Assembly: GCA_041390685.1 (NCBI GenBank)
Contig: JAWKPL010000001.1
Coordinates: 2,545,269-2,609,268, forward strand
Direction of reading: 5' to 3'
Length of the DNA: 64,000 nt
DNA from: Dehalococcoidia bacterium
GTDB taxonomy: Bacteria > Chloroflexota > Dehalococcoidia > UBA2979
Below, in pieces: positions 11,906 through 33,352 of the stretch. Position 1 is the first letter of the stretch, and every line of letters starts with the position of its first letter. Under the pieces are notes generated by a model that saw nothing but the letters and a program-made list of their open reading frames with translations, had not been told where the DNA came from and did no database searches. A program made the position numbers and the translations under genes.

Positions 11906-11996
11906 CGAACCGCCCCCAGACCAAGGAACGCGACCATTGAGCACCGTAGAATCCCTCGAGGAGACCCCCGCGCCCTCCGGCGCCTCAGGAGACAAC

Positions 11997-14383: not shown

Positions 14384-14385
14384 CC

Positions 14386-17570: not shown

Positions 17571-18175
17571 CGAATAGCCTCGGACGCCGCGCCGTCGTCG
17601 ACCGCGAGACCGCGGAGACCCGCATCCACGTCGACCTCCAGGTCGACGGCCGCGGACTCGCCACCGTCCGCACGGGCATCGGCTTCTACGACCACATGCT
17701 GAGCGCCTTCGCGAAGCACGGCCGCTTCGACCTCGAACTGACCTGCGAAGGCGACCTCGAGGTGGACGCGCACCACACGATGGAGGACTGCGCCATCGCC
17801 CTCGGCGCCGCCTTCGACCGCGCCCTCGGCGACCGCGCCGGCCTGGTGCGTATGGGCGACGCCCTCGTCCCCCTGGACGAGGCGCTGATTCAGGCCGCCA
17901 TCGACCTCTCCGGCCGCCCCTTCGCCGCCATCTCGCTCGCCTTCGGCGGCGAGCGCATCGGCGAGGCCCCCACCGAGATGGTCGCGCACGTGCTGCAGTC
18001 GTTCTCCGTCGGCGCGCGCCTCACGCTGCACGTCCGCCAGCTCTCCGGCGCCAACGACCACCACATCGCCGAGGCCACGATGAAGGCCCTCGGACGCGCC
18101 CTCGATGCCGCCACCCGCCCCGACGACCGCATCGCCGGCGAAGTCCCGAGCACGAAGGGCACCCTGACGACATAA
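17567..18175 (+). CDS. hisB: imidazoleglycerol-phosphate dehydratase
   Basis: 202 aa with IGPD motifs (IGFYDHMLSAFAKHGRFDLELTCEGDLEVDAHHTMEDCAIALG). Confidence 0.95.
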   Translation: MTNSLGRRAVVDRETAETRIHVDLQVDGRGLATVRTGIGFYDHMLSAFAKHGRFDLELTCEGDLEVDAHHTMEDCAIALGAAFDRALGDRAGLVRMGDALVPLDEALIQAAIDLSGRPFAAISLAFGGERIGEAPTEMVAHVLQSFSVGARLTLHVRQLSGANDHHIAEATMKALGRALDAATRPDDRIAGEVPSTKGTLTT

Positions 18176-18179: not shown

Positions 18180-19070
18180 TCAGCGTGACGCAGCGCCGAT
18201 GTGCACCAGCACCTCGGCGATACCGCCCACCTCCCCGCGCAGCCTCGCATCGACGGCCTGAGCGATCGCGTGCGCCTCCTGCACCGTGAGTCCGGGATCG
18301 ACGTGGATATGCAGGTCGACGCGCACCTGCCCCGGCTCGCCGCGCGACCGCACGGCATGACAGTCCTCGACACCGGCGACGCCACACGCCAGGAGGCGCA
18401 GCTGCTCCACATCCAGCGGGGTCACATCCGTGAGCGTCGCCGCGGCGTCGCGCACGATCGACCAGGCGCGCCATGCCACCACGCCGCCCATCACGAGTGC
18501 GACGAGGGGGTCGAAGCGCAGCAGCCCGCCGTAGCTGGCAGCGATGCCCGCCAGCACAGCGATCGCCGCCACTGCATCGGCAAGGCTGTGGGTCGCCTCG
18601 GAACGCAGGATCCGGCTCGACAGGTGCGCGTCTGCTCGCCGGAGCACGAGGAACAGCCCGCCGTTGGCCGCCGCCGACGCGGCCATCAGCGCGATCCCCC
18701 ACCCGCCCCGCGAGACCTCCTCCGGATGGATCAGTCGGGGGATCGCGACCGCCGCGATCAGCCCGACGGCCGCGAGGAGCAACATGCCGATCACGAGTGC
18801 GCTCAGCGACTCGAAGCGCTCGTAGCCGTAGGGGTGCCGTGCGTCGGCCGGTCGCGTGCTCAGCCAGATGCCGCCCAGCGACGAGACGTGCGCCGCCGCG
18901 CCGATCGTGACGTGCACCGCACTGGCCGTGATCCCGGCGCTACCGGTGAACCACGCGCCGCCGAACTGCGCCATCGCCAGGAGCGCGTGCACACCGACGG
19001 CCAGTGCCAGCGGTCGCACGAGCGCACGCCGTCGCTGCGCCCCCGTCTCCCGAGACGGCCCGCCCTGCAT
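18180..19070 (-). CDS. cation diffusion facilitator family transporter
   Basis: 296 aa from ATG at 19070. 6-TM CDF core (HPYGYERFESLSALVIGMLLL, SEATHSLADAVAAIAVLAGI) with C-terminal cytoplasmic domain. Start overlaps the stop of the upstream ZIP gene by 1 nt (TGATG). Confidence 0.85.
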   Translation of the reverse strand: MQGGPSRETGAQRRRALVRPLALAVGVHALLAMAQFGGAWFTGSAGITASAVHVTIGAAAHVSSLGGIWLSTRPADARHPYGYERFESLSALVIGMLLLAAVGLIAAVAIPRLIHPEEVSRGGWGIALMAASAAANGGLFLVLRRADAHLSSRILRSEATHSLADAVAAIAVLAGIAASYGGLLRFDPLVALVMGGVVAWRAWSIVRDAAATLTDVTPLDVEQLRLLACGVAGVEDCHAVRSRGEPGQVRVDLHIHVDPGLTVQEAHAIAQAVDARLRGEVGGIAEVLVHIGAASR

Positions 19071-19855
19071 CACGCCACCTCCATCGAGGCGAGGCCGTAA
19101 AGGCCGGGCAGTGACAGCGCGAAGAGCCCGGTCAACACCAGCTTCTCGCGAAGACCAATGGGCTCGCGCAGCTCGGGCAGGAGGTCGCTGCTGGCGATGT
19201 AGATGAAGTTCCCCGCCGCGAACGGCACAAGCAGCTCCGTGTCGATCCCTCCCGATGCCACGTAAGCCACGAGCGCGCCCACGAGGAACGTGAGGCCGGA
19301 GAGCAGGTTGTACGTGAGCGCCTGCCGCTTCCTCCAGCCCCGGCTGACCAGGATGCCGAAGTCGCCGAGCTCCTGAGGCACCTCGTGGGCCGCGGCGACG
19401 AACCACGTAACGATGCCAAGGCGGGCGTCGATCAAGAACGTACCCGCGACGGCGATGCCTCCAAGCAGGTTGTGCAGCCCGTCGGCCAGCAGGATCAGAT
19501 AACCCAGCGGCTCGTGGGCAGCCACGAGGCGGTGCGAGTGGTGCCAGTGCAGGAACTGCTCAAGGAGGAAGAAGACGACGAACCCCGCCGCGAGCGATCC
19601 GTACACCGGCAGTTCGTTGCCGATGTGATCGACCGCCTCCGGCAGCAGGTGAAAGAGCGCCCCGCCGAACAGCGAACCGGCGGCCACCGCCACCAGCGGG
19701 TTGAGCAACCGGTCGAGCCACCGCGGGGGCAGCACCAGCGTCACCGCACCGCTCAGCGCGATCGCCGACATGGCGAGCCCGCCCGCCACGATCCAGGCGA
19801 GCTCACTCACACGCGACCTCGCGCGTTGGCACGGTCCCGCGTCGCGCAAGACCAC
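19070..19855 (-). CDS. ZIP family metal transporter
   Basis: 261 aa, ZupT-like (HEVPQELGDFGILVSRG, HNLLGGIAVAGTFL). Probable GTG start at 19855. Confidence 0.8.
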   Translation of the reverse strand: MVLRDAGPCQRARSRVSELAWIVAGGLAMSAIALSGAVTLVLPPRWLDRLLNPLVAVAAGSLFGGALFHLLPEAVDHIGNELPVYGSLAAGFVVFFLLEQFLHWHHSHRLVAAHEPLGYLILLADGLHNLLGGIAVAGTFLIDARLGIVTWFVAAAHEVPQELGDFGILVSRGWRKRQALTYNLLSGLTFLVGALVAYVASGGIDTELLVPFAAGNFIYIASSDLLPELREPIGLREKLVLTGLFALSLPGLYGLASMEVA

Positions 19856-19903
19856 GCGCGCAGCACAGCACGGCGCTCCACCGGCCGGGACTCCGACGCG
19901 TCG

Positions 19904-20380
19904 TTACTCGACGAGGCTGCGGAGCATCCAGGCCGTCTTCTCGTGCACCTGCAAGCGCTGGGTAAGAAGGTCTGCGGTCACCTGATCGTCGGCAGACTCC
20001 GCAGGCGCGAAGGCGCCGCGAATGGTCTGAGCGACAGCCTCATGTCCGGCCAGCAGTTCCTCGATCATCGCGCCGGCGTCCGGCACTCCATTCGGTTCCC
20101 GGATCGAGGTCAGCATCATGAACTGCCGGTACGTCGCCGGGGCGTGCGCTCCCAGCGCTCGGATCCGCTCCGCGACCAGGTCGGTCGCGAGCCACAGCTC
20201 GTTGTACTGCTCCTCGAACATTAGATGCAGTTCGCGGAACCGCGGCCCCGTCACGTTCCAGTGGAAGTTGTGGGTCTTCAGGTACAGCGTGAACGTATCC
20301 GCGAGCACGGGACCCAGCGCCTCGGCGACTGCGGCGCGGGCCGCTGCCTCGCCAGTCGCCACGTCCTGTCGGTCGACCAC
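19904..20380 (-). CDS. dps: Dps family DNA-binding ferritin-like protein
   Basis: 158 aa (LADTFTLYLKTHNFHWNVTGPRFRELHLMFEEQYNELWLATDLVAERIRALG). Confidence 0.9.
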   Translation of the reverse strand: MVDRQDVATGEAAARAAVAEALGPVLADTFTLYLKTHNFHWNVTGPRFRELHLMFEEQYNELWLATDLVAERIRALGAHAPATYRQFMMLTSIREPNGVPDAGAMIEELLAGHEAVAQTIRGAFAPAESADDQVTADLLTQRLQVHEKTAWMLRSLVE

Positions 20381-20651
20381 AGTGGTGTCCCTCCTTGAAT
20401 CCGCACCCGCCAGGTCCGCGACCGCATGCGCTCGGGAGCGCAGCGACGAGGAATTCCCCGGTCACCGGCGGTCGAGGGGTTCAGAGGTTCGATAGTCATC
20501 GCTCGGCCGGATCGGCCGCGCCACCTGCCTCGACGCCATGCCCATCATGACAGCGGTGATCGAGGACTGCCGCCCCCTTCGTCGCTGCTTCCGGGAACCG
20601 ATCGTCCTGAACCTGCTCAATCATCCGTCCGGCCGGCAACACGCGAGACGG

Positions 20652-21149
20652 CTACCCTTCGCCCTCGAACGGCCCTTGAGGGTTCCCCGTGTCTTCTCGC
20701 GCCTCGTCCCGTCGCGTCCGGTCGGGGTCCCCATGCCGCTCCAGCCCGAGCCGGTAGATCATGTCCGACAGCGGCGACAGCTCGAGGAGCACCACGACCG
20801 TCGCCGTGATCAACACCGCGGTCAGCCACATGTTCTCCGCAACCGCGAGCCCGATGCCCGCCAGCACCCACACGGTCGCCGCCGTCGTCACGCCCCGCAC
20901 GTCATGGCCCCGCTGGAAGATCAGCCCCGCGCCGAGGAACCCGATGCCCTGCACCACGCCGGCCGCCACGCGCGAGTCCCCGTACAGCACGCTCGTCTCC
21001 CCGAACAGCGCCGCCCCCGCGCACACCAGCGCCGAGGTCCGCACCCCCGCCTCGTGGCCGCGATACTCCCGCTCGATGCCAATCGCCGCGCCGAGGACCA
21101 GCGCCAGCAACAGCCGCCCGACCACCTCGATCTGGTCGCCGTTGGTCAT
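20652..21149 (-). CDS. MgtC/SapB family membrane protein
   Basis: 165 aa (RLLLALVLGAAIGIEREYRGHEAGVRTSALVCAGAALF). Confidence 0.85.
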   Translation of the reverse strand: MTNGDQIEVVGRLLLALVLGAAIGIEREYRGHEAGVRTSALVCAGAALFGETSVLYGDSRVAAGVVQGIGFLGAGLIFQRGHDVRGVTTAATVWVLAGIGLAVAENMWLTAVLITATVVVLLELSPLSDMIYRLGLERHGDPDRTRRDEAREDTGNPQGPFEGEG

Positions 21150-21251
21150 CGGCGCACGCTCCCCGCTCGTTGGCTGGACACAACGCCAGTCGAGGCCAGA
21201 TCGTAGCAGTACGGCCGAATCAGGCCGCGCTGAGGAAGGTCAGCCCGCTCG

Positions 21252-21656
21252 ATGAACCTCGACTACGCGTTTCTCTGTGACAGCGCCCAGGAAGGCGGCG
21301 GGAAGGTCCACGCCCTCGGCATCGGTTTCGACACCATCGCCGCCGCCGGGGCCCCCGTGACCCACCCCCTGCTCACCGTGGTCCTTCAGCTCCGCTACTC
21401 GGTCGCCGAGGCCGGCGACAAGGCGCTCTCCGTCCGCCTCATCGACGCCGACGGCCGCAACGTCGTGAACCCCGTCGACCACACGGTGCCCTTCCCCTCG
21501 CCCGAGGGCGCCCGCACCAACACCGCGCGCCTCATCGTCGCCTTCGCCGGCGTCCAGTTCGCCGCCTTCGGCGACTACGCCGTCCACGTCACGGTAAACG
21601 GCGGCGAGATCGCCAGCCTCCCGCTGTCGCTCGTTCCCGCCGCGCCCCCCGCATGA
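21252..21656 (+). CDS. hypothetical protein
   Basis: 134 aa, no recognisable motif. Stop overlaps the start of the downstream IMPase-family gene (ATGA), suggesting co-translation. Confidence 0.4.
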   Translation: MNLDYAFLCDSAQEGGGKVHALGIGFDTIAAAGAPVTHPLLTVVLQLRYSVAEAGDKALSVRLIDADGRNVVNPVDHTVPFPSPEGARTNTARLIVAFAGVQFAAFGDYAVHVTVNGGEIASLPLSLVPAAPPA

Positions 21657-22468
21657 CGCCCGACCTGCTCGCCTTCGCCCTCGAGCTCGCCGACCTGGCC
21701 GACGGCATCACGATGCGCCACTACCGAGGCGGCGGCGACGTCTGGCGGAAGGCGGACGGCACCCTCGTGACGCTCGCCGACACCTCCGCCGAGTCCGCCA
21801 TCCGGGCTCGCATCCTCGAACGCTTCCCCGCCCACGCCATCGAGGGCGAGGAGGAAGGCCTGAGCCTCCCCCCCATGCCGATGGACGACCCCGCCCAGGC
21901 CACCCCGCCCCCCGGCCGCGTGCAGTGGATCGTCGACCCCATCGACGGCACCCATAACTTCGCCCGCGGCGCGCCCGTCTGGGCCACGCTCATCGCCTGC
22001 GAGGTCAACGGCCGCCTCGAGGTCGGCGTCGCCTCCGCCCCCGCCCTCGGCGCCCGCTGGTGGGCCGCCCGCGGCGAGGGCGCGCACCGCCGCGACGCCC
22101 TCACCGGCGTCACCGAGCGCATCCACGTCTCCACCCGCGCCCGCATCGAGGACGCCCAGGTCCTCTACGGTTCCTACACCCTCACCACGGCCGCCTGGGG
22201 TGGCCGCGCCGACGCCCTCCTGCGCGCCAGCTGGCGTCAGCGCGGCTTCGGCGACTTCTGGGGCCACTGCCTCGTCGCCGAAGGTGTCGCCGAAGTCATG
22301 CTCGAGGGCGAAATCGCCCCCTACGACATCGCCGCCCTCATGGTCATCGTGGAAGAAGCCGGCGGCCGCATGACCGACATCGAGGGCGTGGCGCGCATCG
22401 ACGCGGGGCACTGCATCACCACGAACGGCGTGGTGCATGAGGAAGTGCTGGGGGTGCTGCGGCGTTGA
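21653..22468 (+). CDS. inositol monophosphatase family protein, candidate histidinol-phosphatase (HisN-type)
   Basis: 271 aa. IMPase motifs (WIVDPIDGTHNFARGAPVWATLIA, EEE.. metal ligands). Near the his operon. Its 3' 190 bp is duplicated downstream at 23215-23409. Confidence 0.75.
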   Translation: MTPDLLAFALELADLADGITMRHYRGGGDVWRKADGTLVTLADTSAESAIRARILERFPAHAIEGEEEGLSLPPMPMDDPAQATPPPGRVQWIVDPIDGTHNFARGAPVWATLIACEVNGRLEVGVASAPALGARWWAARGEGAHRRDALTGVTERIHVSTRARIEDAQVLYGSYTLTTAAWGGRADALLRASWRQRGFGDFWGHCLVAEGVAEVMLEGEIAPYDIAALMVIVEEAGGRMTDIEGVARIDAGHCITTNGVVHEEVLGVLRR

Positions 22469-22500
22469 CGGGCCGACATCGCCCGCCGCCTACTCGCTGA

Positions 22501-22917
22501 CTACACGTGTACGATCCGGGCCGGCAGCCCGAGCGCCGAGCGCCAGGGCCATCTCCGGTCGGTCGTCAGGATGACGTCCGCGTCCAGCACCACCGCCGTC
22601 GCGATCACCAGCGCATCCGGAAGGCGTAGCCGCGACCCGTGCCGCGCCCTCAGCACGGCCGCCGCCTCCGCGACCGCCTCGTCGAGCGGCACCACACGCA
22701 CAGGGAAGCGGCCAACGAACGCCCGCACCTGCTCGACTGCTGCATCGCCACGCCGGCTCGGTCCGACCAGCACCTCCGCATAGGCTGAAGCTGCAAGCGC
22801 GAGACTGTCCCCTGCGGCGCTGGCCGCCGCGAGGGCCTCTCGGGCGGGGGCATGGTGCGTGTCTGCGGCGTCGAGGAACGCGATCAGGACGCCGGCATCG
22901 AGGACGATCAGGCCCAT
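22501..22917 (-). CDS. vapC: type II toxin VapC (PIN domain ribonuclease)
   Basis: 138 aa. MGLIVLDAGVLIAFLD...acidic PIN residues. Overlaps the vapB 3' end. Confidence 0.85.
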   Translation of the reverse strand: MGLIVLDAGVLIAFLDAADTHHAPAREALAAASAAGDSLALAASAYAEVLVGPSRRGDAAVEQVRAFVGRFPVRVVPLDEAVAEAAAVLRARHGSRLRLPDALVIATAVVLDADVILTTDRRWPWRSALGLPARIVHV

Positions 22918-23159
22918 TCGCCCCGCAAGCGCTCAAGCTCGTCGCGCTCATAGACACCGGTGAGACGGCCGGCAAACTCCGCGATGACATCGGCCTCACG
23001 CTGCAGCACCACGCGCCCGGGCCCCTCGACGGTCGCCACGAGGCGTTCACCGACGTGCAGCCCTGCCTCCTCCATGGCGCGCACGGGGATCGTGACCTGG
23101 TGTTTGCGACTGATGCGGGTACGCTGTGTGGCGCGACCACCATTCTTTACTTCACTCAT
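22908..23159 (-). CDS. vapB: type II antitoxin VapB (AbrB/MazE/SpoVT fold)
   Basis: 83 aa from ATG 23159 (MSEVKNGGRATQRTRISRKHQVTIPVRAMEEAGLHVGERL...). Swapped-hairpin antitoxin motif. 4-nt overlap with vapC. Confidence 0.75.
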   Translation of the reverse strand: MSEVKNGGRATQRTRISRKHQVTIPVRAMEEAGLHVGERLVATVEGPGRVVLQREADVIAEFAGRLTGVYERDELERLRGEWA

Positions 23160-23196
23160 GAAAGTAAAGCTACCGTGCTGCCGCCCTCGCCGCAAG

Positions 23197-23409
23197 CAGC
23201 GATCGGCGACATGGTGCTCGCCTCCACGTCGCCGAAGTCATGCTCGATGGCGAAATCGCCCCCCCTGCGACATCGCCGCTCTCATGGTCATCGTCGAAGA
23301 AGCCGGCGGCCGCATGACCGACATCGAGGGCGTGGCGCGCATCCACGCGGGGCACTGCATCACCACGAACGGCGTGGTGCATGAGGAAGTGCTGGGGGCG
23401 CTGGCATAG
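23197..23409 (+). pseudogene. degenerate duplicated 3' fragment of the IMPase-family gene
   Basis: About 190 nt nearly identical to 22275-22468 (cgccgaagtcatgctcga...gaagtgctggggg). Has a +2 nt indel (C5 to C7 run, tac to tgc) and a few substitutions. No start codon. Encodes ...DIAALMVIVEEAGGRMTDIEGVARIHAGHCITTNGVVHEEVLGALA. Confidence 0.65.
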
Positions 23410-23454
23410 ACGAGTGCTTGGCGGTCTCGACGTCGATACCATATCGTTAGCGCC

Positions 23455-26400
23455 ATGACTAATCGTCTCCCAAATGTCGATTTCCGACAGATTCGGCCCT
23501 ATGGGCAGCCAGCTTCCCGATCGAGCGGGTTCGAGGAGCTCGCGTCGATCTTGATCGAGCATGGCGCGGTCGACTGGCCTAGCGGCACACGATTTCACCG
23601 CTTCGGGAACCCCGATGGCGGCCGTGAGGCGAAGGCTGTGCTCCCGAATGGGGACGTCTGGGCATGGCAGGCAAAGTACCTATTCGAATTCGATTCGTCT
23701 GCGGCCGGACAGGTGACTTCCTCAGTGCGCCGTGTTCTGGAGAGTGAACCGGACCTGAAGCGCTATTTCGTCGCTATGCCGCTAGACATGCCAGCAGGCG
23801 ACACGAAAGACCGCACGTCGGCGCACACGCGCTGGACTGAGAAGGTCTCTGAATGGGAGCAGCTTGCTCGCAAGAACAACCTTAACGTGGAGTTTGTCTT
23901 CGTCGGCGCCCATGAGCTCGTCACGACGCTAACTGAGGCTGAGCACGCTGGGCGCCTACGGTACTGGTTCGGCCTCGACATCTTGACCCCCGAATGGCAG
24001 GAACGTCGCCTTGAGGAGGCCAAAGCAAAGGCGGGGCGCCGCTATACGCCAAGCCTCCACGTGGAAGTGGAGGCAGTCCGGTCCCTCGATGCGGTCGGCC
24101 GCCGCGATGCTTACGTGTCACGATGGCAGGCGATCCTCGCCGAATTGAGGGAAGCCCGACGATGGACTTGGCGGCCGCCGAAGGACGCCGCTGACGAGTT
24201 TGCCGAGGCACTTCCTAAGTGCGAAGCCGCACTCGATGAGGCCGACGTGGCACTTGGACTCATGATTACCGCGGCCCGGTCGACGGAGGATCTTCCTCGG
24301 ATCGAGAGCCCGCTTAACCTCGCGATGGAAGCCGTAGGCGAGGCGGAAGAACTCCTTCACCGACACTCGTTGACCAAAGGCGGCTATTTCGTTGGAGATG
24401 CTGCCTCCCTGTACTCGCACATACGAGATGCGATCGGTGCGCTGTGGCAGGCCAGAGAACTCGCGAACGCCGCGGCGACACACGCGGCACGTGACAAGGT
24501 GCTTCTCGTAACAGGACGCGCTGGCGTCGGAAAGACGCATCTCCTATGCGATGTGGCGACTCGGCGAACTGCTGACGGGTACCCAACTGTTGTCCTTCTC
24601 GGGCAGGACTTCGATGGCAGGTCGCTACTCTCGCAAATCAGCGAACGGACACAACTCGGTGGGACACTGGACGACATCCTGGGTGTGCTCGATGCTGCGG
24701 CGGAAGCCTCCAGCTGCACTGCGCTCTTGATCATCGACGCGCTAAACGAGAGCGAACGTGCCGAGCGTTGGAGGGATGAATCTCGAGCTCTACTCGCCGC
24801 TGCCACCCGATTTTCTCACATAGCAGTAGTGCTGTCTTGCCGCTTGGAGTTCGTTGAAAAGGTCATTGGTGACCACCGACTGCCAACGGTCGAGCACGTC
24901 GGTTTTGCAGAAGCGACCGACGTTGCTGTTCAACGATTTACCCGGGAATTTGGGCTGGAGCCACCGACGTTCCCTCTGCTCAACCCGGAGTTCAGCAACC
25001 CGCTCTTCCTCAAGCTAACGTGTGAGGCCCTCTCAACGCTTGGGAGGACTCGCTTTCCCTTTGGTTCAGCCGGCCTCACTACGATATACGAGGTCTTCTT
25101 GGAGGCTGTGAACAAGCGGCTTTCCGAACCCCATCGCTGCGACTATGACGAGCACAGCGACGCAGTTGGCCAAGCGATACGAGAGATAGCGCTCCTCGGC
25201 CCCGGTCCGCTTGATCGAGCTGACGTGCAACGCATCACCGATAGGATTTTGCCCGGCCATTCGTGGTCTCGATCGCTGATGAACGGGCTGATCTCCGAGG
25301 GAGTCCTCCTGGAGATCTACGACAGGCGAATCGTCTTCGGGTACCAGCGGTTGGGAGACATGACGCGCGCGGGCGCAATCGCCGAGAGGGGTCCAGATGG
25401 CGTGCGCGCGTGGCTCCAGCAGCTCGACGACGATGTCTGGCGCGAGGCGGGGGTGTTGGCCGCGCTGGCCGTGATCGTGCCGGAGCGCCACGGCCAGGAA
25501 CTCGTCATCCTCGCCGCAGATGACGAAGGTAGGGTCTCATACCACATCGTCGACAGCTTTCTCGAGAGCCTGCTCCTTCGCGCCCCGGAGTCGATATCAC
25601 CACGCGCGGTCGAGATCGTTCAACGGTTGCTGGATGACGGACACCGCGTAGGCGAGATCTGGGATCGCCTGTTCCGTCTCGCCTGCGTGTCTGGCAATCC
25701 ACTAAACGCCGAATGGCTTCATGCTCGTCTCGCTGGCTATGAAGTGGCGGATCGTGACCGGATCTGGTCTGAATGGCTTGTCGACTCAGCGAGTCCCGAT
25801 GACGAGAGTCCCGTCCGCCGTCTGCTGGAATGGGCGTGGCCTGCAGACCTCGAAAGTCGCGCCCCAGTCCCCGACGATATCGCTAATCTCGCAACGCTTA
25901 CGCTTGGCTGGCTTCTGACAACCACTGATCGCCGCGTGCGAGATCGTGCGACCAAGGCGCTCGTGAGCGTCGGCGAACGAGCGCCGCAGGCCTTCGCCAG
26001 CGCCCTCAAGCGATTCCGTGGAACGAGCGACCCATACATTCTAGAGCGACTGGTGGCAGCTGGATGTGGCGTGGTCTTGAGGAGCAGCGATGCGAGCACT
26101 GTGCACGTTATCGCAGACGGCGTGCTGGAACTCCTTGCGGATGGATGGCCCGTGCACCTGATGACGCGGGACTACGCGCGACGCACCTTTGCCGTCGCAC
26201 ATACCCGCGGCTGGTCTGGCCCGGCATCCCTGCCACCGTACGGGGCGACTTGGCCGCTTCCGACGACCCCAGCCGACGAGATCGAAGTCCTCGCTGGACC
26301 ACCGGACTATGCCTACGCGTCGATCTGGCACTCACTCACCGGCATGGGCGACTTTGGCCGTTATATCCTGCAGTCCGCGCTTCGTAATTTCGAAACGAAG

Positions 26401-27639
26401 GATGCGGGAGCACTGCAGCGAGAGGCGGCGCAAGCGATATTCGATCGGGTGCTCGAGCTTGGCTGGACCCCAGAGCGTTTCGGCGAAATCGATCGGTCGC
26501 GACCAGGGGCCTCCAGGTTCAATCGCGTAGTTGAGCGAGTCGGTAAGAAGTATCAGTGGATCGGCTTCTACGAGGTACTGGGCCGCATCGCTGACCACCA
26601 CGGCATACAGCCGAGGTGGGGCGACGAAGAACGGGGGCCGTACGCGTATCCGGAGCAACTCGTGTGGCGCGACATTGACCCGACCGTACTCGTCCGCAAG
26701 CCCGCGCAGTCACCTACGCAGGAGCACCAGTGGTTTTCGCCGGTCGAGGCGCGTTTTCCGCCGGGCGTCTCTGACGACTACCCGATCGACATGAGCGGTG
26801 CCCCCGATCCATTGGACTTGATCGCAGTCTCCGATCCTGGCACCGCACAGTGGTTAGTCGTGGTCAGCGAGCCCGACTGGAAGCAGCCACTAGCGGTGGA
26901 GATCGAGGCACTGCGCGTACCGCGCCGCCAACTATGGATGGGCCTTCGCGCGTACCTCGTTCCGCTCGCCGACATGGCTGCACTGCGGGCGTGGGCTGGG
27001 GACAAGGACTGGTCGGATGGGTGGATGCCCGCGCTTCCGAATGTATCCAACGTGCTGCTGGGTGCGCATCCGGACGACCCCGCGTGGGCTGCGGCCGACG
27101 GACAGGTCGACGGGTGGCGCGGAAGGGACGGGCACATACCGCCCGTCGAGCTCATAGAAGTTGCTGCATGGTACGCCGGTACCGGCACCTCGCGGGATTT
27201 GTCTGCCGAGGACAAGACACTGGGGTACGTTCCGAGTAAACGATTGCTCGAGCTAACCGATCTCTCCAGTGGAGTCGATTTCACTTGGAGTGATGCCTTG
27301 GGCGTCGCTGTCTGCGATCCCAGCGCGACCTCAGGTGGCCCAGCGGCCCTCATCATGCGGCGCGATCTCGTGGCGCGACTCGCACACGCTGGACTGACCC
27401 TCTTCTGGACGGTGGTCGTTAACAGCGAGCTCCACCGCAGCGACTACTCAATTCCCGGTGACGACCATCGCTGGGTCAGCGCGACAGCCTCGTACATCCT
27501 CACCGGCGACCGGGTGGAGCTGATCGGTGCCAGAGCCTCCCGACTCCAGGCAGGGGCAGTGCGGGAGCGAGAAGTGAAGTGGTCCCCAAGGGCGATAGAG
27601 GACGAGGTCGGGGGCGCCGGCGCGCAGCATCGGAGATAG
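23455..27639 (+). CDS. large STAND/NACHT-type P-loop NTPase with N-terminal PD-(D/E)xK-like nuclease domain and C-terminal HEAT-like helical repeats; candidate Avs-like antiphage defense protein
   Basis: 1394 aa in a single uninterrupted ORF with visibly lower GC than its surroundings. N-terminal 170 aa has FEELASILIE...GNPDGGREAKAV...GDVWAWQAKY (D / ExK / QxK pattern). Residues about 345-470 have Walker A LLVTGRAGVGKTHLL, Walker B ALLIIDALNESE (hhhhDxxNE, NACHT-like) and sensor-1 IAVVLSCR. The C-terminal 850 aa is helical with HEAT-like repeats (RVRDRATKALVSVGE...). Confidence 0.75.
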   Translation: MTNRLPNVDFRQIRPYGQPASRSSGFEELASILIEHGAVDWPSGTRFHRFGNPDGGREAKAVLPNGDVWAWQAKYLFEFDSSAAGQVTSSVRRVLESEPDLKRYFVAMPLDMPAGDTKDRTSAHTRWTEKVSEWEQLARKNNLNVEFVFVGAHELVTTLTEAEHAGRLRYWFGLDILTPEWQERRLEEAKAKAGRRYTPSLHVEVEAVRSLDAVGRRDAYVSRWQAILAELREARRWTWRPPKDAADEFAEALPKCEAALDEADVALGLMITAARSTEDLPRIESPLNLAMEAVGEAEELLHRHSLTKGGYFVGDAASLYSHIRDAIGALWQARELANAAATHAARDKVLLVTGRAGVGKTHLLCDVATRRTADGYPTVVLLGQDFDGRSLLSQISERTQLGGTLDDILGVLDAAAEASSCTALLIIDALNESERAERWRDESRALLAAATRFSHIAVVLSCRLEFVEKVIGDHRLPTVEHVGFAEATDVAVQRFTREFGLEPPTFPLLNPEFSNPLFLKLTCEALSTLGRTRFPFGSAGLTTIYEVFLEAVNKRLSEPHRCDYDEHSDAVGQAIREIALLGPGPLDRADVQRITDRILPGHSWSRSLMNGLISEGVLLEIYDRRIVFGYQRLGDMTRAGAIAERGPDGVRAWLQQLDDDVWREAGVLAALAVIVPERHGQELVILAADDEGRVSYHIVDSFLESLLLRAPESISPRAVEIVQRLLDDGHRVGEIWDRLFRLACVSGNPLNAEWLHARLAGYEVADRDRIWSEWLVDSASPDDESPVRRLLEWAWPADLESRAPVPDDIANLATLTLGWLLTTTDRRVRDRATKALVSVGERAPQAFASALKRFRGTSDPYILERLVAAGCGVVLRSSDASTVHVIADGVLELLADGWPVHLMTRDYARRTFAVAHTRGWSGPASLPPYGATWPLPTTPADEIEVLAGPPDYAYASIWHSLTGMGDFGRYILQSALRNFETKDAGALQREAAQAIFDRVLELGWTPERFGEIDRSRPGASRFNRVVERVGKKYQWIGFYEVLGRIADHHGIQPRWGDEERGPYAYPEQLVWRDIDPTVLVRKPAQSPTQEHQWFSPVEARFPPGVSDDYPIDMSGAPDPLDLIAVSDPGTAQWLVVVSEPDWKQPLAVEIEALRVPRRQLWMGLRAYLVPLADMAALRAWAGDKDWSDGWMPALPNVSNVLLGAHPDDPAWAAADGQVDGWRGRDGHIPPVELIEVAAWYAGTGTSRDLSAEDKTLGYVPSKRLLELTDLSSGVDFTWSDALGVAVCDPSATSGGPAALIMRRDLVARLAHAGLTLFWTVVVNSELHRSDYSIPGDDHRWVSATASYILTGDRVELIGARASRLQAGAVREREVKWSPRAIEDEVGGAGAQHRR

Positions 27640-27704
27640 CCGGTGGACCCACAATCCACCGTTTCGACGTGGTCAGAGTCCCGCGTCTGCGCTCGTCCTC
27701 CCCC

Positions 27705-27938
27705 CTACCCCGCCACAACCTCCCCCACCTCATACCTGAAGTCCTCGATCACCGGGTTCGCCAGCAACTGCTCGCACATCGAGCGGATCGCCGCCTCCGC
27801 CGCCCCCGCGTCCGAGGCCTCCAGGGTCACCTCGATGCGCTTGCCCACGCGCACGGTGCTCACCCCCTCGAAACCCAGCGTGTGCAGGCCGTCGCGCACC
27901 GCCAGCCCCTGCGGGTCGTTCACCAGCGGCTTCAGCAT
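27705..27938 (-). CDS. purS: phosphoribosylformylglycinamidine synthase subunit PurS
   Basis: 77 aa (MLKPLVNDPQGLAVRDGLHTLGFEGVSTVRVGKRIEVTLEA...). Confidence 0.9.
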   Translation of the reverse strand: MLKPLVNDPQGLAVRDGLHTLGFEGVSTVRVGKRIEVTLEASDAGAAEAAIRSMCEQLLANPVIEDFRYEVGEVVAG

Positions 27939-27994
27939 CACATTGATTCGCGCTTGAAAGGTCGGCACGAGGGCTCCTCGCTGTTTGTGTGTCG

Positions 27995-28891
27995 TTAGTC
28001 CGGCAGGCTCGCCCCCGTGAGGAGGCGGTACGCTTCGCGATAGCGCTCGGAGGTCGCCTGCACCACCTCGGACGGCAGGTCCGGCGCCGGCGGCCGCTTC
28101 GCCCACCCCGACGCCGTCAGCCAGTCGCGCAGTGGCTGCTTGTCGAACGACGGCTGGTCGCGCCCCGGCTGGTACTGGTCCACGGGCCAGAACCGTGAGG
28201 AGTCCGGCGTCAGCGCCTCGTCGATCAGCGTCACTTCGCCGTCCAGCATCCCGAACTCGAACTTCGTGTCCGCGATGATGATCCCGCGCTCCAGCGCCAC
28301 CTCCGCCGCGTAGCGGTACAGCGCCAGCGACCGCAGCCGCATCACGTGCGCGCGGTCCGGCCCCACCAGCGCCTCGACGTCCGCATAGCTGATGGGCTCG
28401 TCGTGCTCCCCCACGGCGGCCTTCGAGGATGGCGTGAAGATCGGCTCGAACAGCCGGTCGCTCTGCACCAGCCCCGGCGGCAGCTCCACGCCGCTCACCC
28501 GCCCCGTCGCGTGGTAGTCCGCCCACCCCGACCCCGCGAGGTAGCCCCGCACCACGCACTCCACGGGCAGCGGCTCCGCCTTCCGCACGACCATCGACCG
28601 TCCGAAGAACGACGCGTCCGCGTCCGCCCCCAGCGCCGAGGCGTTCGACGCCTCGAGCACCGCGACCATGTGGTTTGGCACCACCGCCGCCGTGCGGTCG
28701 AACCAGTACGCCGACAGCCGCGTCAGCACCTCCCCCTTCCGAGGGATGCCCTGCGGCATCACGACGTCGAAGGCCGAGATGCGGTCCGTCGCCACCATCA
28801 GCATCCGGTCGCCCGGCAGCTCGTACAGGTCGCGCACCTTGCCGCGATGCAGCAGCCCCGGCCGCTCCGTCGTCAGCAGCACCTCGCTCAT
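27995..28891 (-). CDS. purC: phosphoribosylaminoimidazole-succinocarboxamide synthase
   Basis: 298 aa from ATG 28891 (LLHRGKVRDLYELPGDRMLMVATDRISAFD). Overlaps the purB stop. Confidence 0.9.
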   Translation of the reverse strand: MSEVLLTTERPGLLHRGKVRDLYELPGDRMLMVATDRISAFDVVMPQGIPRKGEVLTRLSAYWFDRTAAVVPNHMVAVLEASNASALGADADASFFGRSMVVRKAEPLPVECVVRGYLAGSGWADYHATGRVSGVELPPGLVQSDRLFEPIFTPSSKAAVGEHDEPISYADVEALVGPDRAHVMRLRSLALYRYAAEVALERGIIIADTKFEFGMLDGEVTLIDEALTPDSSRFWPVDQYQPGRDQPSFDKQPLRDWLTASGWAKRPPAPDLPSEVVQATSERYREAYRLLTGASLPD

Positions 28892-30189
28892 CGCGGCAGC
28901 AGTCCGATGCGCCGGAACGACTCGTCGACGTGCACGAGGTACGCCCCGTAGTCGAAGACCGCGTCCAGTCGCGCGGCGTCGAGGCGCTCGGTCACCTCGG
29001 GGTCCCCCTCGAGCAGCCCGCGCAGCGGCGTCTGCTGCTCCCACGCCGTCATTGAGTGTCGCTGCACGATCTGGTACGCCGCCTCGCGCGTCAGCCCCGT
29101 CTCGATGAGCGCGAGCAGCACCTTCTGCGAGAACACGAGCCCCTGCGTCCGCTCGAGGTTCGCGCGCATCCGCGGCGGGTACACCACCAGGCCATCCATG
29201 ACCCCGGTGAAGATGTGCAGCATGTACGCGAGCAGCCCGGTCGCGTCGGGGAGGATGATGCGCTCCGCCCCCGAGTGCGAGATGTCCCGCTCGTGCCACA
29301 GCGCCACGTTCTCGAGGCCCGTCACCGCGTACCCGCGCAGCGTCCGCGCCAGCCCGCACACGCGCTCGCACAGCTCCGGGTTCCGCTTGTGCGGCATCGA
29401 GGACGACCCGGTCTGGCCCGCCTCGAACGGCTCCTCGGCCTCGAGGATCTCCGTGCGCTGGAGCCCTCGAATCTCCGTCGCGAACTTCTCGAGCGAGGCC
29501 CCCACGCCCGCGAGCACCGCGAGGAAGTGCGCGTGTCGGTCGCGCTGGATGATCTGCGTCGTCACTTCCGCCACCGCTAGCCCGAGGTGCGCGCACGCCT
29601 GCTCCTCGACGGCCGGGGGCACTGTGGCGTGCGTTCCCACCGGGCCGGACATCTGCCCCACGGCCACGGTCGCGCGCGCCTGGCGCAGGCGCTCCTCGTG
29701 CCGCGCGATCTCTGCCACCCACACCGCGAGCTTGAGCCCGAACGTCGTCGGTTCGGCGTGCACGCCGTGCGTCCGTCCGACGCAGATCGTGTCTTTGTGC
29801 TCCACCGCCCGCCGTCCGACGACCTCGCGCAGCCGCGCCAATTGCCCGAGCAACAGGTCGGTCGCGGCCACCAGTTGGAGGCTCGTCGCCGTGTCCCACA
29901 CGTCCGAGGACGTCAGCCCGAGGTGCACCCACCTCGATTCCGGCCCCAGCGAGTCCGCCACCGATCGCAGGAACGCGGTCACGTCGTGGTGCGTCTCCGC
30001 GATGTAGCGGTCGATGTCGCCGATGTCGATCCGTGCGTTCGAGGCGATCAGCCGCGCATCCTCGGCGGGTACGACGCCCGCATCCGCCCACGCCTGCACG
30101 ACCGCGATCTCGACGTCCAGCCAGCGCTGGAACTTGAACTCGTCCGCCCAGATCGCCGTCATCTCCGGACGGCTGTATCGAGGAATCAC
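28888..30189 (-). CDS. purB: adenylosuccinate lyase
   Basis: 433 aa (MIPRYSRPEMTAIWADEFKFQRWLDVEIAVVQAW..., SSMPHKRNP fumarate-lyase signature). Confidence 0.95.
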   Translation of the reverse strand: MIPRYSRPEMTAIWADEFKFQRWLDVEIAVVQAWADAGVVPAEDARLIASNARIDIGDIDRYIAETHHDVTAFLRSVADSLGPESRWVHLGLTSSDVWDTATSLQLVAATDLLLGQLARLREVVGRRAVEHKDTICVGRTHGVHAEPTTFGLKLAVWVAEIARHEERLRQARATVAVGQMSGPVGTHATVPPAVEEQACAHLGLAVAEVTTQIIQRDRHAHFLAVLAGVGASLEKFATEIRGLQRTEILEAEEPFEAGQTGSSSMPHKRNPELCERVCGLARTLRGYAVTGLENVALWHERDISHSGAERIILPDATGLLAYMLHIFTGVMDGLVVYPPRMRANLERTQGLVFSQKVLLALIETGLTREAAYQIVQRHSMTAWEQQTPLRGLLEGDPEVTERLDAARLDAVFDYGAYLVHVDESFRRIGLLPR

Positions 30190-30530
30190 GGGGCGTCGTC
30201 CACGAAGTCGTCGCGCACCGGCGAGAACACTTCGATGAGGATCGCCGCGTCGACTGCTTCGACATAATGCGGGAGCCCGCTCGGGATCAGGTACGAGTCC
30301 CCCGCCTCGAGCTCGAACTCCTCGCTCCCGATGCGGAAGCGCACCTGCCCGGCCGCCACGTGCCCCGCCTGCTCGTGCGGGTGCGTGTGCTCGGGCACGT
30401 TCGACCCCGGCGCGATGCGGATCTCCACCATCGTCAGCCGCTCACCCGAGGCCAGCGTGCGCCGCACGACGCCGGGGAAGGCGTCGTGCACGGGCACCGC
30501 CGCGTACGTCTTCGTCCGAAACTCGCTCAT
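30186..30530 (-). CDS. cupin domain protein
   Basis: 114 aa with cupin His motifs (GSNVPEHTHPHEQAGHVAAGQV...PSGLPHYVEA). Confidence 0.7.
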   Translation of the reverse strand: MSEFRTKTYAAVPVHDAFPGVVRRTLASGERLTMVEIRIAPGSNVPEHTHPHEQAGHVAAGQVRFRIGSEEFELEAGDSYLIPSGLPHYVEAVDAAILIEVFSPVRDDFVDDAP

Positions 30531-30916
30531 CCTGCCGCCAGTCTGCTCACCATCGGGTCCGGCCCGATGAGTATCTGCGCCAGTTCGCGGCTCACCGCGT
30601 CCCGCTCATGTTGGTCGCCGAACAGCGCCACGCCGTCCACGACGCGCGCGAACGCCGCGATCGCCCCCTCGATGCGCTCCCGGTGCGCCTCGAGGAGAGC
30701 GCGCGGGATCTCCGGCGGCCGCACGTTGCGGATCACCAGCTCCCGGTTTCCCTCGAGCGCGTGCAGCACCTCGAGGCCCATCGACTCGCGCCCCTCGCCC
30801 CACGCCGCAATGAAGTGCAGGCACGGCGCCGAGGCCGGTTGCTCCGGCCACGCCGGCAGCGCATCGAGGTCAGTCGACCGCCGGCACTCCCGCATCGGGC
30901 ACCGCACCGAGGTCAC
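30527..30916 (-). CDS. hypothetical protein
   Basis: 129 aa, no recognised motif. Overlapping start/stop with neighbours (operonic). Confidence 0.4.
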   Translation of the reverse strand: MTSVRCPMRECRRSTDLDALPAWPEQPASAPCLHFIAAWGEGRESMGLEVLHALEGNRELVIRNVRPPEIPRALLEAHRERIEGAIAAFARVVDGVALFGDQHERDAVSRELAQILIGPDPMVSRLAAG

Positions 30917-31149
30917 TGCGTACTCGCCGGCTGCGGAACCGAACGGATCGCCTCCGCGATCGCTCCGGCATCGGGCAACCCCTCGAGATGCACGCCGCGA
31001 CTCACGAACAGGAACTCGACGCCGACAACCCCCTGGTCGCCGCGGTCCAGCACTCGCTGTTCATCAATCCGCGTCGAGGTGATCCGGCCCGACTTCGGTC
31101 GAAACCGCACGTACATCGCGTCGGATTCCTGGTCGTAGCTCACCTGCAT
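30913..31149 (-). CDS. DUF2283 family protein (putative antitoxin-like partner)
   Basis: 78 aa. MQVSYDQESDAMYVRFRPKSGRITSTRIDEQRVLD matches the DUF2283 pattern M.I.YD.E.D.LYI.F. Confidence 0.6.
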   Translation of the reverse strand: MQVSYDQESDAMYVRFRPKSGRITSTRIDEQRVLDRGDQGVVGVEFLFVSRGVHLEGLPDAGAIAEAIRSVPQPASTQ

Positions 31150-31354: not shown

Positions 31355-32640
31355 TTCGCATGCACGGCATCTTCCGCGGTCGCCCCGATGTCCGTTCGGT
31401 AGTGCATCCCCTCGAAGCGAATGCGCCGCACGTTGTCGTATGCCCGCGCCCGTGCGTCGGCGACCGTCGCACCGCTCGCCACGACGCACAGCACCCGCCC
31501 GCCCGAGGTGCGCAGCACCCCGGCGTCGTCGCGCTTCGCCCCCGCGAGGAACACCTGTACGTCCGCGTCGACGTCCCCAACGCCTTCGATGGGGAAGCCC
31601 GTCTCGTACGCCCCCGGGTAGCCCCCCGAGGCCAGCACGACGCCCACTGTCGCCGCCCCGCTCCACTCGACCGGCACGTCCGCCAGCCGCCCGTGCGCGA
31701 CCGCATCGCAGATCGCGAGGAGGTCCGACTGCAGTCGAGGCAGCAGCACCTCCGTCTCCGGGTCGCCGAAGCGGCAGTTGAACTCCACCACCCGCGGCCC
31801 CGCGTCGGTCACCATCATCCCCGGGTACAGCACCCCTCGATATGGCCGCCCCGCGGCCGCCATCGCCCGCACGGTCGCCTCGGTCACCTCGCGCTCGATG
31901 AACGAGGCGTACTCGGCGCTCAGCCAGCCCGGCGGCGAATACACGCCCATCCCCCCGGTGTTCGGTCCGAGGTTGCCGTCGAACACCGGCTTGTGGTCGC
32001 ACGAGAACGGCATGTGCCGCACCGTCACGCCATCCGAGAACGCATGCGCCGAGGTCTCCGGCCCCCGCATCCGCTCCTCGATCACGACGCGCGCGCCGGC
32101 GTCCCCGAACGCTCGCCCGACCATCGTCTCGTCGATCGCCGCGAGGGCCTGCGCCACGTCGTCGCACACCGTGACGCCCTTCCCGAGCGCCAGCCCGTCC
32201 GCCTTCACCACACACGGCCCGCCGAGGGCTTCGACGTACTGTCTGGCCTCCGCCGCGTCCTCGAACACGCGCGACTCGGCGGTCGGGATGCCCGCGTCCC
32301 GCATGACCTGCTTCGCGAACGACTTCGACCATTCGAGTTTCGCCGCCGCCCTGGTGGGCCCGAACGCCGCGATCCCCGCGGCAGCCAGCGCATCGACGAC
32401 GCCCGCCGCAAGCGGGTCGTCCGGCGCCACGATCACGAGGTCCGCGCGCACCCGCTGCGCCAGCGCCACGACCCCCTCGACGTCCGTCGCGCGCACCTCG
32501 ACGTTCTCGCCAAGCTCCGCCGTCCCGGCGTTCCCCGGCGCAATCCACAGCTTCCCGAGCATCGAGGACAGCGCGAGCTTCCACGCAATCGCGTGCTCCC
32601 GCCCGCCCGACCCGAGGAGGACGACGTTGAGGGCAGTCAT
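31351..32640 (-). CDS. purD: phosphoribosylamine--glycine ligase
   Basis: 429 aa (MTALNVVLLGSGGREHAIAWKLA, ATP-grasp core). Confidence 0.95.
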   Translation of the reverse strand: MTALNVVLLGSGGREHAIAWKLALSSMLGKLWIAPGNAGTAELGENVEVRATDVEGVVALAQRVRADLVIVAPDDPLAAGVVDALAAAGIAAFGPTRAAAKLEWSKSFAKQVMRDAGIPTAESRVFEDAAEARQYVEALGGPCVVKADGLALGKGVTVCDDVAQALAAIDETMVGRAFGDAGARVVIEERMRGPETSAHAFSDGVTVRHMPFSCDHKPVFDGNLGPNTGGMGVYSPPGWLSAEYASFIEREVTEATVRAMAAAGRPYRGVLYPGMMVTDAGPRVVEFNCRFGDPETEVLLPRLQSDLLAICDAVAHGRLADVPVEWSGAATVGVVLASGGYPGAYETGFPIEGVGDVDADVQVFLAGAKRDDAGVLRTSGGRVLCVVASGATVADARARAYDNVRRIRFEGMHYRTDIGATAEDAVHAK

Positions 32641-33344
32641 ACTTCAAGCTCGGTTAAGCGGTCAGCGAGATCGCTAAGAGCTTTTCGAATTGCGTGTCTG
32701 GGCAGCGCAAAAACAAAGCGCCGCGTTCTGCCGGTTGTAACCACCGCGTCGCGGTAGTGCTGATTTCCGTAGGAAATCTTGTGGGTTTCAATGCTGGGAC
32801 GAGATCCGAAATGGTCTAGTACTGGGTACCAAGTGGATTCGCTGCTTCCTAGGAGCACCAGGACACGCGGCTTCACAATCCGTATTAGCTCAATACCGAT
32901 AGGCATTCCAGAGCAGAATAGATCTCTTGGTAACTTGTCTACGGATGATGATCGAAATGGGATTACGTTTCCCGTGGGTGAATTCCGAAGAAGTTGCTCG
33001 CCTGTCTTAGTGCGCCCACCTGCGAGCCCGTAAGTTTCGGCTACGTCATACGCTACCTTTTGTAGGGGATACTGACCGCGTGGCCTGCCTGACCAACACT
33101 CATCGAGAAACGCAGAGTACGGCTTCCTTCTCGTTCGGTAGGGCTTCCCAGGATCTTTCGGATCGGCGTTGTCAGGATCTCCGCCAGGATTGATCCCTAG
33201 TAGCATGAAGTCGTGTGACATAAACGTACTTGGGTGAGAATAAATGAGACGGTACCCTTTTGCTGGATCAGCAACATCTCTCGTACTCAGAATCGAGAGA
33301 CACTTTCGATCGAGCGCTCTCAATTGGCTTTCCACCGAGAACAT
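32637..33344 (-). CDS. uracil-DNA glycosylase superfamily protein (MUG/HDG-like, GINPG motif)
   Basis: 235 aa from ATG 33344 (MFSVESQLRAL...). Motif FMLLGINPGGDP resembles the family-2/6 UDG motif-1 (G-I-N-P-G). GC is visibly lower (about 50%) than flanking genes. Confidence 0.45.
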   Translation of the reverse strand: MFSVESQLRALDRKCLSILSTRDVADPAKGYRLIYSHPSTFMSHDFMLLGINPGGDPDNADPKDPGKPYRTRRKPYSAFLDECWSGRPRGQYPLQKVAYDVAETYGLAGGRTKTGEQLLRNSPTGNVIPFRSSSVDKLPRDLFCSGMPIGIELIRIVKPRVLVLLGSSESTWYPVLDHFGSRPSIETHKISYGNQHYRDAVVTTGRTRRFVFALPRHAIRKALSDLADRLTELEV

Positions 33345-33352
33345 CGCAGCCG

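Follow-up and report, generated by a model that had tools for sequence, protein, structure and literature searches.

The 4185-nt gene avs2, at positions 23455..27639 (+ strand, stop codon included) of the window, i.e. the whole 64,000-nt stretch of DNA analysed, very probably encodes a stand-alone Avs2 (AVAST type 2) anti-phage pattern-recognition protein, with the domain order of KpAvs2 from Klebsiella pneumoniae and acting by the mechanism proposed below. Its membership of Avs2 is shown here, as judged by sequence, in every domain of the protein. The gene is real, intact and horizontally acquired. Because Avs2 is a family already described and structurally solved, it represents an ordinary further member and no novel type of system, and nothing in it should surprise a specialist. 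The chief value of the finding lies in annotation: this protein and its many relatives in Actinomycetota and Chloroflexota can be named as Avs2 with a Mrr-like nuclease.

An intact gene of foreign composition

The gene starts with ATG and encodes 1394 aa in one unbroken ORF, as the original prediction had it, and its length and start codon match those of full-length homologues. GC content is 0.61-0.64 across 23-27 kb versus 0.70-0.72 in the flanks (1-kb windows). The predicted contrast with the background was thus found, the announced value of 58-60% being slightly low against a measured mean of 62.4% for avs2 (0.69/0.49/0.69 at the three codon positions). GC3 is 0.69, versus 0.80-0.94 for the native neighbouring genes of the window. 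By this foreign composition avs2 looks horizontally acquired, and both GC3 and the 1-kb windows fit the acquisition that the initial description of a low-GC island implied.

All motifs quoted initially were recovered in the translation: FEELASILIE (aa 26-35), NPDGG (aa 52-56), QAKY (aa 72-75), Walker A LLVTGRAGVGKTHLL (aa 350-364), Walker B ALLIIDALNESE (aa 423-434), IAVVLSCR (aa 456-463) and the HEAT-like motif RVRDRATKALVSVGE (aa 827-841). Across 12 homologues (48-70% identity), D54, Q72 and K74 are invariant, and so are the STAND motif residues G354, G357, G359, K360 and T361 (GxxGxGKT), as well as D428, N431, E432, S461, C462 and R463. The Walker A lysine, the Walker B acidic residues and the sensor-1 arginine are all intact. 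Comparison with a 98%-identical orthologue (58 nucleotide differences) gave a pN/pS of 0.24, which shows that avs2 is under purifying selection.

This constraint, together with an ORF that is full length relative to its homologues and with the integrity of all catalytic and NTPase motifs, makes it very improbable that avs2 is an inactive relic, i.e. a defence gene acquired once and persisting without function between hisN and purS. Three observations would fit a relic: a scan of 22400-28100, the 45-nt upstream gap included, yielded no sigma-70-like promoter, no Shine-Dalgarno sequence before the ATG was obvious by eye, and an orphan gene fragment lies directly upstream of avs2. However, the consensus used for the promoter scan is of E. 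coli type and may not be that of the host.

Avs2 homology in every domain

The PADLOC Avs2 profile PDLC02164 matched with E=9.6e-298, and PDLC02162 aligned aa 8-1328 with its positions 3-1345 of 1379, the Avs2 match running in order through effector, NTPase, sensor and C-terminal domain. When four segments were scanned separately with PADLOC, strong matches were to Avs2 models only, with E-values of 2e-40 (aa 6-179, nuclease, to profiles that include this type of nuclease), 6.8e-92 (NTPase), 1.2e-85 (helical sensor) and 2e-66. The NCBIfam Avs2 model NF041813 matched aa 192-982 only, with E=2e-214 and 715 bits versus a curated cut-off of 1000, which is a naming threshold and no biological feature, the model being built around relatives with other effectors and longer sensors. 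GenBank labels the avs2 product and its relatives only as "ATP-binding" or "NACHT domain-containing", and these generic labels on the relatives are explained by scores below the NCBIfam cut-off. The solved EcAvs2 from E. coli (PDB 9o4e, cryo-EM with the PhiV-1 terminase; PMC13601566) aligns over aa 177-974 and 989-1321 (E=6.5e-119; by part, 7e-81 and 7e-35), that is, along the linker, the STAND NTPase and both sensors. The Avs2 sensor has been reported as clade-specific (PMC13581612). These matches bear out the architecture first proposed (nuclease, STAND NTPase and repeat sensor) and its assignment to Avs; the idea of an undescribed Avs-like variant is dropped, since existing Avs2 profiles match end to end and the domain order is that of KpAvs2. 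Against the Avs2 call stand the sub-cut-off NCBIfam score and its limited coverage, a low identity to EcAvs2, several changed contact residues (see below), the absence of about 110 residues (EcAvs2 990-1098; PDLC02164 positions 1003-1114) and the absence here of an accessory gene like the Avap2 of KpAvs2.

The N-terminal effector (aa 1-176, 23455..23982, +) is a predicted Mrr-like PD-(D/E)xK nuclease. No Pfam family matched aa 1-182, even at E<=5, and the assignment rests on motif and fold: an alpha-beta-beta-beta-alpha-beta core in which an acidic residue precedes strand 2 and strand 3 carries (E/Q)xK. The nuclease fold shown here is the one anticipated for this N-terminus. Candidate catalytic residues are E27/E28, D54 (23614-23616) and Q72-A-K74 (23668-23676), all on the + strand. 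KpAvs2 (Bechon et al., Nat Commun 2024, PMC11564622), compared here by its published description, likewise has a Mrr-family PD-(D/E)xK nuclease, a helical bundle, a STAND NTPase and a long Avs2 C-terminal sensor, in the same order. Its nuclease lysine (K71, versus K74 here) and Walker A lysine (K337, versus K360) stand at near-equal positions; KpAvs2 degrades DNA, and either K71A in the nuclease or K337A in the STAND Walker A abolishes defence (PMC11564622). In EcAvs2, by contrast, the N-terminus is an uncharacterised effector. EcAvs4 (PDB 8dgf), a sensor of the portal protein, has a nuclease sharing only 12% sequence identity with the one found here, and an NTPase and sensor unrelated at the Avs2 level.

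A helical linker joins the effector to the NTPase (about aa 177-333, 23983..24453, +); it aligns with EcAvs2 from residue 165 onward, in a region that forms a helical extension or bundle in EcAvs2 and KpAvs2 (PMC13601566, PMC11564622). The STAND NTPase module follows at about aa 334-560 (24454..25134, +, limits approximate), with a strong alignment to the EcAvs2 ATPase. It contains Walker A GRAGVGKT (aa 354-361, 24514-24537, +), Walker B LLIIDALNE (aa 424-432, + strand, within the 30 bases 24721-24750, which encode aa 423-432) and sensor-1 SCR (aa 461-463, 24835-24843, +). Pfam matches on aa 334-463 were all sub-threshold: 23.2 bits for AAA_16, 18.6 for nSTAND3 and 16.9 for NACHT (gathering 26.7). 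The NTPase is assigned to STAND because of its homology to Avs2; of the NACHT-clade STAND NTPase initially predicted, the STAND part is therefore kept and the NACHT part is no more than a candidate placement, AAA_16 and nSTAND3 scoring as well or better.

The alpha-helical repeat sensor, the so-called TPR domain of Avs2, spans about aa 561-974 (25135..26376, +), where the 9o4e alignment extends to residue 989; it harbours the HEAT-like motif and D966, which corresponds to D981 of EcAvs2. Along their lengths, this protein and EcAvs2 have in common the Walker A and B motifs, RDxxTKALVS, the GDF motif carrying D981, and ERxGKKYQWI. A sensor made of HEAT repeats rather than TPR, as first suggested, found no support: HEAT_2 (Pfam) scored 12-14.5 bits versus a threshold of 27.7, with E=0.27 for the full-length protein and E=0.044 for the segment alone, and the stretch RRVRDRATKALVS pairs column for column with NRELRDCSTKALVS of EcAvs2, inside the domain termed TPR (PMC13601566).

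The C-terminal sensor (aa 975-1394, 26377..27636, +) comprises a short helical part and then a beta-rich domain, so that the announced 850 aa or so of helical repeats hold for about aa 560-974 only. It aligns with EcAvs2 1099-1442 (E=1.1e-35). In its model (pLDDT 72), strands dominate from about aa 1120, and the sole confident Foldseek match in the PDB is the terminase-bound Avs3 SeAvs3 (8dgc, probability 0.96), in agreement with the published C-terminal sensor common to Avs2 and Avs3 (PMC13601566). SeAvs3, which senses terminase and switches on its N-terminal nuclease by tetramerising, differs by another TPR domain, a larger size (about 2000 aa) and a Cap4-like nuclease, and it gave no match to this Avs2 at the sequence level.

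Proposed mechanism and trigger

The steps below, from trigger and tetramer assembly to DNA degradation and abortive infection, are inferred from the publications on EcAvs2 and KpAvs2. In the uninfected cell, Avs2 would be monomeric, with its nuclease off. Upon infection, the two sensors (helical and C-terminal) and the linker would together provide the pocket that binds a conserved phage protein, most likely the large terminase subunit through its ATPase domain. ATP-bound STAND modules would then form a tetramer, bringing four N-terminal nuclease domains together into an active state, and cellular and phage DNA would be degraded without sequence preference, so that infection is aborted.

Target recognition in the Actinomycetota/Chloroflexota short-form subclade of Avs2-Mrr proteins might differ from that of EcAvs2. 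At the published EcAvs2 contact residues, HMMER alignments of low local confidence place 2 of 7 identical residues and 1 conservative change, E1364 to D (read by eye), while T1128 has become P, R1130 A, E1362 S and W1266 L. In view of these partial ATP and terminase contacts, of the sub-cut-off NCBIfam score and of the residues missing between the helical and C-terminal sensors, a non-terminase trigger, or a terminase recognised without the bridging ATP of EcAvs2, is conceivable for a protein with the same Avs2 fold and effector. Moreover, KpAvs2 and EcAvs2 are known to respond to the non-terminase proteins Ksap1, Ksap2 and vs.8 (PMC11564622, PMC13601566). Still, we consider it unlikely that this subclade relies mainly on such a trigger or on terminase without bridging ATP: every Avs2 tested to date is activated by terminase, and single contact mutations are reported to leave defence in place, recognition relying on complementary shapes across an extensive, redundant interface (PMC13601566).

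Neighbourhood, relatives and transfer

The locus is a single-gene islet beside a vapBC cassette. The adjacent module, noted in the original prediction, consists of vapC (PIN toxin, 138 aa, 22501..22917, -; Pfam PIN E=1.5e-18), a neighbour outside Avs2, preceded by the small AbrB/MazE-type antitoxin gene vapB (83 aa, 22908..23159, -; Pfam MazE_antitoxin E=3.1e-5, 24.3 bits versus a cut-off of 24.7, i.e. 0.4 bits under). The two genes overlap by 10 nt, and the orthologous loci of L001 and L002 lack vapC. The gene-end duplication also described there is equally present. Its first copy (22286..22459) is the 3' end of an intact inositol-monophosphatase (IMPase)-family gene (21653..22468, +), and its second (23228..23403) is an orphan duplicate of that end, 97% identical to the first, which stops 50 nt upstream of the avs2 start. 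The term "defence island" does not suit the surroundings: ten neighbouring ORFs gave no PADLOC match, and avs2 and vapBC are flanked by housekeeping genes, the his operon and IMPase gene on one side and purS-purC-purB on the other. KpAvs2, in contrast, shares its operon with two other genes, Avap1 (radical SAM) and Avap2, the latter being required against some phages (PMC11564622); neither flanks avs2 here. The locus is an example of a lone defence gene sitting between genes of core biosynthesis.

Two related MAGs carry the gene at this site too. The block avs2-purS-purC is 98% identical to these MAGs, versus 86% for the his operon on the opposite side; avs2 was apparently exchanged together with one flank. 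A defence gene may recently have passed between related lineages here, with homologous recombination taking place in the core-gene flanks. A combined scenario, in which the short-form subclade recognises its target differently and, separately, a recent defence-gene transfer took place at this locus, seems rather unlikely to us.

Relatives were found in 66 species, spread over phyla of Bacteria and Archaea and set in contexts unrelated to one another, and on 62 plasmids, some of them annotated avs2. Their surroundings are scattered, non-conserved and often associated with defence or mobility, as expected of the variable loci initially proposed; neighbours in some cases are Type ISP restriction-modification, GmrSD or transposase genes, and the his/pur linkage was not seen across many genera. 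A STAND or AAA+ ATPase with a housekeeping or regulatory role unrelated to phage defence, which the position between histidine and purine biosynthesis genes, here and in two related MAGs, could suggest, has next to no probability left given this patchy distribution over phyla and plasmids, the lack of a conserved neighbourhood and the foreign composition of the gene. The matches to Avs2 profiles and structure, nuclease effector included, already contradict such a role. Studies of the Avs2 family have been confined almost entirely to E. coli, Klebsiella and Salmonella, and this protein contributes a member from a high-GC host outside the enterobacteria; KpAvs2 comes from an enterobacterium, whereas the host here is of the high-GC Chloroflexota/Actinomycetota type.

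Assignment of the gene to the Avs2 family

The gene is a single unbroken ORF of 1394 aa with an ATG start, at 23455..27639 (+), and every motif quoted in the original prediction was found in its translation. The low GC content claimed for it was also recovered: per 1-kb window, GC is 0.61-0.64 over the gene versus 0.70-0.72 on either side. At codon positions 1, 2 and 3 the values are 0.69, 0.49 and 0.69, while GC3 in the other genes of the window is 0.80-0.94. This contrast is genuine, and as expected for a horizontally acquired gene. Comparison with the orthologue in locus L001, from a related Dehalococcoidia metagenome-assembled genome (MAG), gave a pN/pS of 0.24 (58 nucleotide and 24 amino-acid differences), which shows purifying selection on the gene. 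The exact protein sequence was looked up without a match; its nearest relative, P0001, is 98% identical. When the protein is aligned with eleven homologues of 48-70% identity, the key motif residues do not vary.

Against Pfam, the full-length protein and its segments gave P-loop matches only (AAA_16, nSTAND3 and NACHT, all sub-threshold). Neither the nuclease nor the C-terminal domain found a match, so by Pfam alone the protein would stay unassigned. Profiles of defence systems gave an unambiguous answer. The PADLOC Avs2 profile PDLC02164 matched aa 6-982 (E=9.6e-298), and a second one, PDLC02162, matched aa 8-1328 against positions 3-1345 of its 1379 (E=5.7e-186). The NCBIfam model NF041813, "AVAST type 2 anti-phage system protein Avs2", gave E=2e-214 for a match limited to aa 192-982, with a score of 715 bits, below its curated 1000-bit cut-off. 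When segments 1-180, 181-560, 561-980 and 981-1394 were scanned one by one, all four matched Avs2 models (E=2e-40 to 7e-92) and nothing else of weight. Among solved structures, the sole real match was E. coli Avs2 (EcAvs2, PDB 9o4e), over aa 177-974 and 989-1321 (E=6.5e-119). Each domain is that of Avs2, or an Avs-type Mrr nuclease, with intact catalytic motifs.

The protein had been proposed as a possible undescribed variant. It is instead an Avs2 with a nuclease of the type found in Klebsiella pneumoniae Avs2 (KpAvs2), divergent and of high GC, and it adds a member to a family for which genetics, biochemistry and a 2.3 Å structure are already published.

Domains and comparison with characterised Avs2 proteins

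The predicted architecture was correct, the domain order being that of KpAvs2, which is made of an Mrr-family endonuclease, a STAND NTPase and the Avs2 C-terminal domain (PMC11564622). KpAvs2 loses its defence activity with either K71A (nuclease) or K337A (Walker A), and once activated it degrades DNA indiscriminately (PMC11564622); the corresponding lysines here, K74 and K360, lie at nearly the same positions.

The nuclease (aa 1-176) has no equivalent in EcAvs2, which carries another, uncharacterised effector domain in its place (PMC13601566). An AlphaFold model of this region, built with ten homologues as input (pLDDT 75, pTM 0.74), places a helix at 22-38, strands at 46-50, 57-62 and 68-73, a helix at 81-97 and a strand at 101-107. 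This modelled topology corresponds to the alpha-beta-beta-beta-alpha-beta core of PD-(D/E)xK nucleases, the fold anticipated from the sequence. D54 precedes the second strand and Q72-A-K74 lies on the third, D54, Q72 and K74 being invariant among homologues. The linker that follows (aa 177-333) aligns to the EcAvs2 helical extension. Likewise, the Walker A (GRAGVGKT, aa 354-361), Walker B (LLIIDALNE, aa 424-432) and sensor-1 (SCR, aa 461-463) motifs align with the EcAvs2 ATPase, as predicted for the STAND module.

The HEAT reading of the sensor was rejected. The sensor had been described as HEAT-like helical repeats running to the protein end, but Pfam HEAT_2 stayed far under threshold, and aa ~561-974 align with the EcAvs2 domain named TPR in the structure paper. 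The stretch taken as HEAT-like, RRVRDRATKALVS, has NRELRDCSTKALVS as its EcAvs2 counterpart in the alignment, and is therefore a family feature rather than a distinguishing one. The remainder, aa 975-1394, does not consist of helical repeats. It aligns with the C-terminal sensor of EcAvs2 (1099-1442, E=1e-35), and in its model (pLDDT 72) strands predominate from about aa 1120. Searched with Foldseek against the PDB library, this model gave one confident match only, the terminase-bound Avs3 (8dgc, probability 0.96); 9o4e, which the sequence search did return, was not recovered. According to the published account, Avs2 and Avs3 have this sensor in common (PMC13601566). The protein lacks an equivalent of some 110 EcAvs2 residues (990-1098). 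No such gap interrupts the match to the shorter of the PADLOC models, PDLC02162, so known Avs2 sequences already include this short form.

EcAvs2 assembles as a C4 tetramer in which each protomer binds one terminase ATPase domain, together with a bridging ATP (PMC13601566). By analogy with such homologues, the sensor pocket would bind a phage protein, for which the large-terminase ATPase domain is the likeliest candidate. ATP-dependent tetramerisation through the STAND module would then draw together and activate four nuclease domains, and the resulting non-specific DNA degradation would abort the infection. Equivalents of the published EcAvs2 contact residues were read from HMMER alignments that are locally weak: in these, D981 (D966 here) and R1132 are kept, E1364 becomes D, and T1128, R1130, E1362 and W1266 are replaced by P, A, S and L, respectively. 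The EcAvs2 study emphasizes that recognition is redundant and shape-based (PMC13601566). These changes are a caveat on the trigger, not on membership of the Avs2 family.

Distribution of relatives

More distant whole-protein relatives were found in 66 species, predominantly Actinomycetota, but also Ignavibacteriales, Spirochaetota, Alphaproteobacteria, Myxococcota and Methanobacteria, and on 62 plasmids, where some are annotated avs2. Four of their neighbourhoods were described and have nothing in common: one holds a Type ISP restriction-modification system and a large AAA_15/21 protein, another GmrSD and a transposase, the third, flanked by glnA and glnE, includes an excisionase-like HTH gene, and the fourth contains a Fic gene. 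In one close relative, P0110 (55% identical over 86% of the protein), a TIR_2 domain (PF13676) replaces the Mrr-like nuclease, the junction falling just ahead of a conserved AKAGRRY motif. Here an effector has been swapped inside the same Avs2 subclade. Such swapping is typical of Avs proteins.

No full-length relative was found in the phage collection. Its sole match was a "hypothetical protein" of Staphylococcus phage UPMK_1 (MG543995.1, 103402-104856), 26.6% identical to aa 629-1092, i.e. the helical sensor part only (E=8e-28).

Genomic setting and possible traces of recombination

The suggestion that the gene belongs to a defence island was rejected: PADLOC gave no match in ten neighbouring ORFs, and the flanks are housekeeping genes such as those of the his and pur pathways. 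To the left lie hisC and hisB, genes for a CDF transporter, a ZIP transporter and a ferritin/Dps, MgtC and DUF6941 genes, and an inositol-monophosphatase-family (IMPase) gene (21653..22468). To the right, on the strand opposite avs2, lie purS (27705..27968), purC and purB (28888..30189), then a cupin gene, a DUF2283 pair, purD and guaA. The locus is a one-gene islet inside a housekeeping region. The idea of an integrative element using a tRNA as its attachment site was likewise rejected, the window containing no tRNA, tmRNA or Rfam family and the scanned ORFs no integrase. A consensus promoter scan of 22400-28100 gave zero sites. Terminator-like sites were at chance level. The 65 nt that separate avs2 from purS contain none, and the nearest is at 27968-27980 (+), between purS and purC.

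A 98%-identical protein occupies the same site, directly behind the IMPase gene and ahead of purS, in two "Dehalococcoidia bacterium" MAGs (GCA_019694855.1 and GCA_046328275.1). Compared with these, the window carries an extra cassette of vapC (22501..22917, -) and vapB (22908..23159, -). This cassette lies between two direct copies, 175 nt long and 97% identical, of the IMPase 3' end (region 22286-23403). The second copy is nearer to the first (97%) than to the MAG sequence (90.7%), and no integrase or transposase was seen near the cassette. A 217-aa ORF at 22490..23143 (-) was discarded as a spurious Arg/Pro-rich frame overlying the true vapB and vapC.

Nucleotide identity to the MAG loci L001 and L002 is 85.8-86.7% over the his operon and IMPase gene (10156-18171 and 20754-22456). 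It rises to 97.8-98.0% over 23405-28486, a block that starts 50 nt before avs2, spans purS and was followed only into purC, where both MAG contigs stop. This jump suggests a recent recombination tract comprising avs2 and one core-gene flank.

All four assemblies with the 98% orthologue (L001-L004) break near avs2: both MAG contigs stop within purC, and the two Logan contigs contain hardly anything besides avs2. These breaks are consistent with strain-level variation around the locus. Elsewhere, the three metal-homeostasis genes between hisB and MgtC (CDF cation-efflux, ZIP transporter and ferritin/Dps; 18180-20650, -) are absent from L001 and L002, where MgtC directly follows hisB. Between purD and guaA, a stretch of low GC (0.62-0.65) at ~32640-33345 (-) holds an ORF that matches nothing in Pfam or PADLOC (~235 aa when counted from MFSVESQ...); the stretch may be another small foreign insertion. 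Finally, between the cupin gene and purD (30527-31149, -), a DUF2283 gene (78 aa, E=4.6e-8) precedes and overlaps a 129-aa ORF that has no match in Pfam or PADLOC; the pair looks like a small two-gene toxin-antitoxin-like module.
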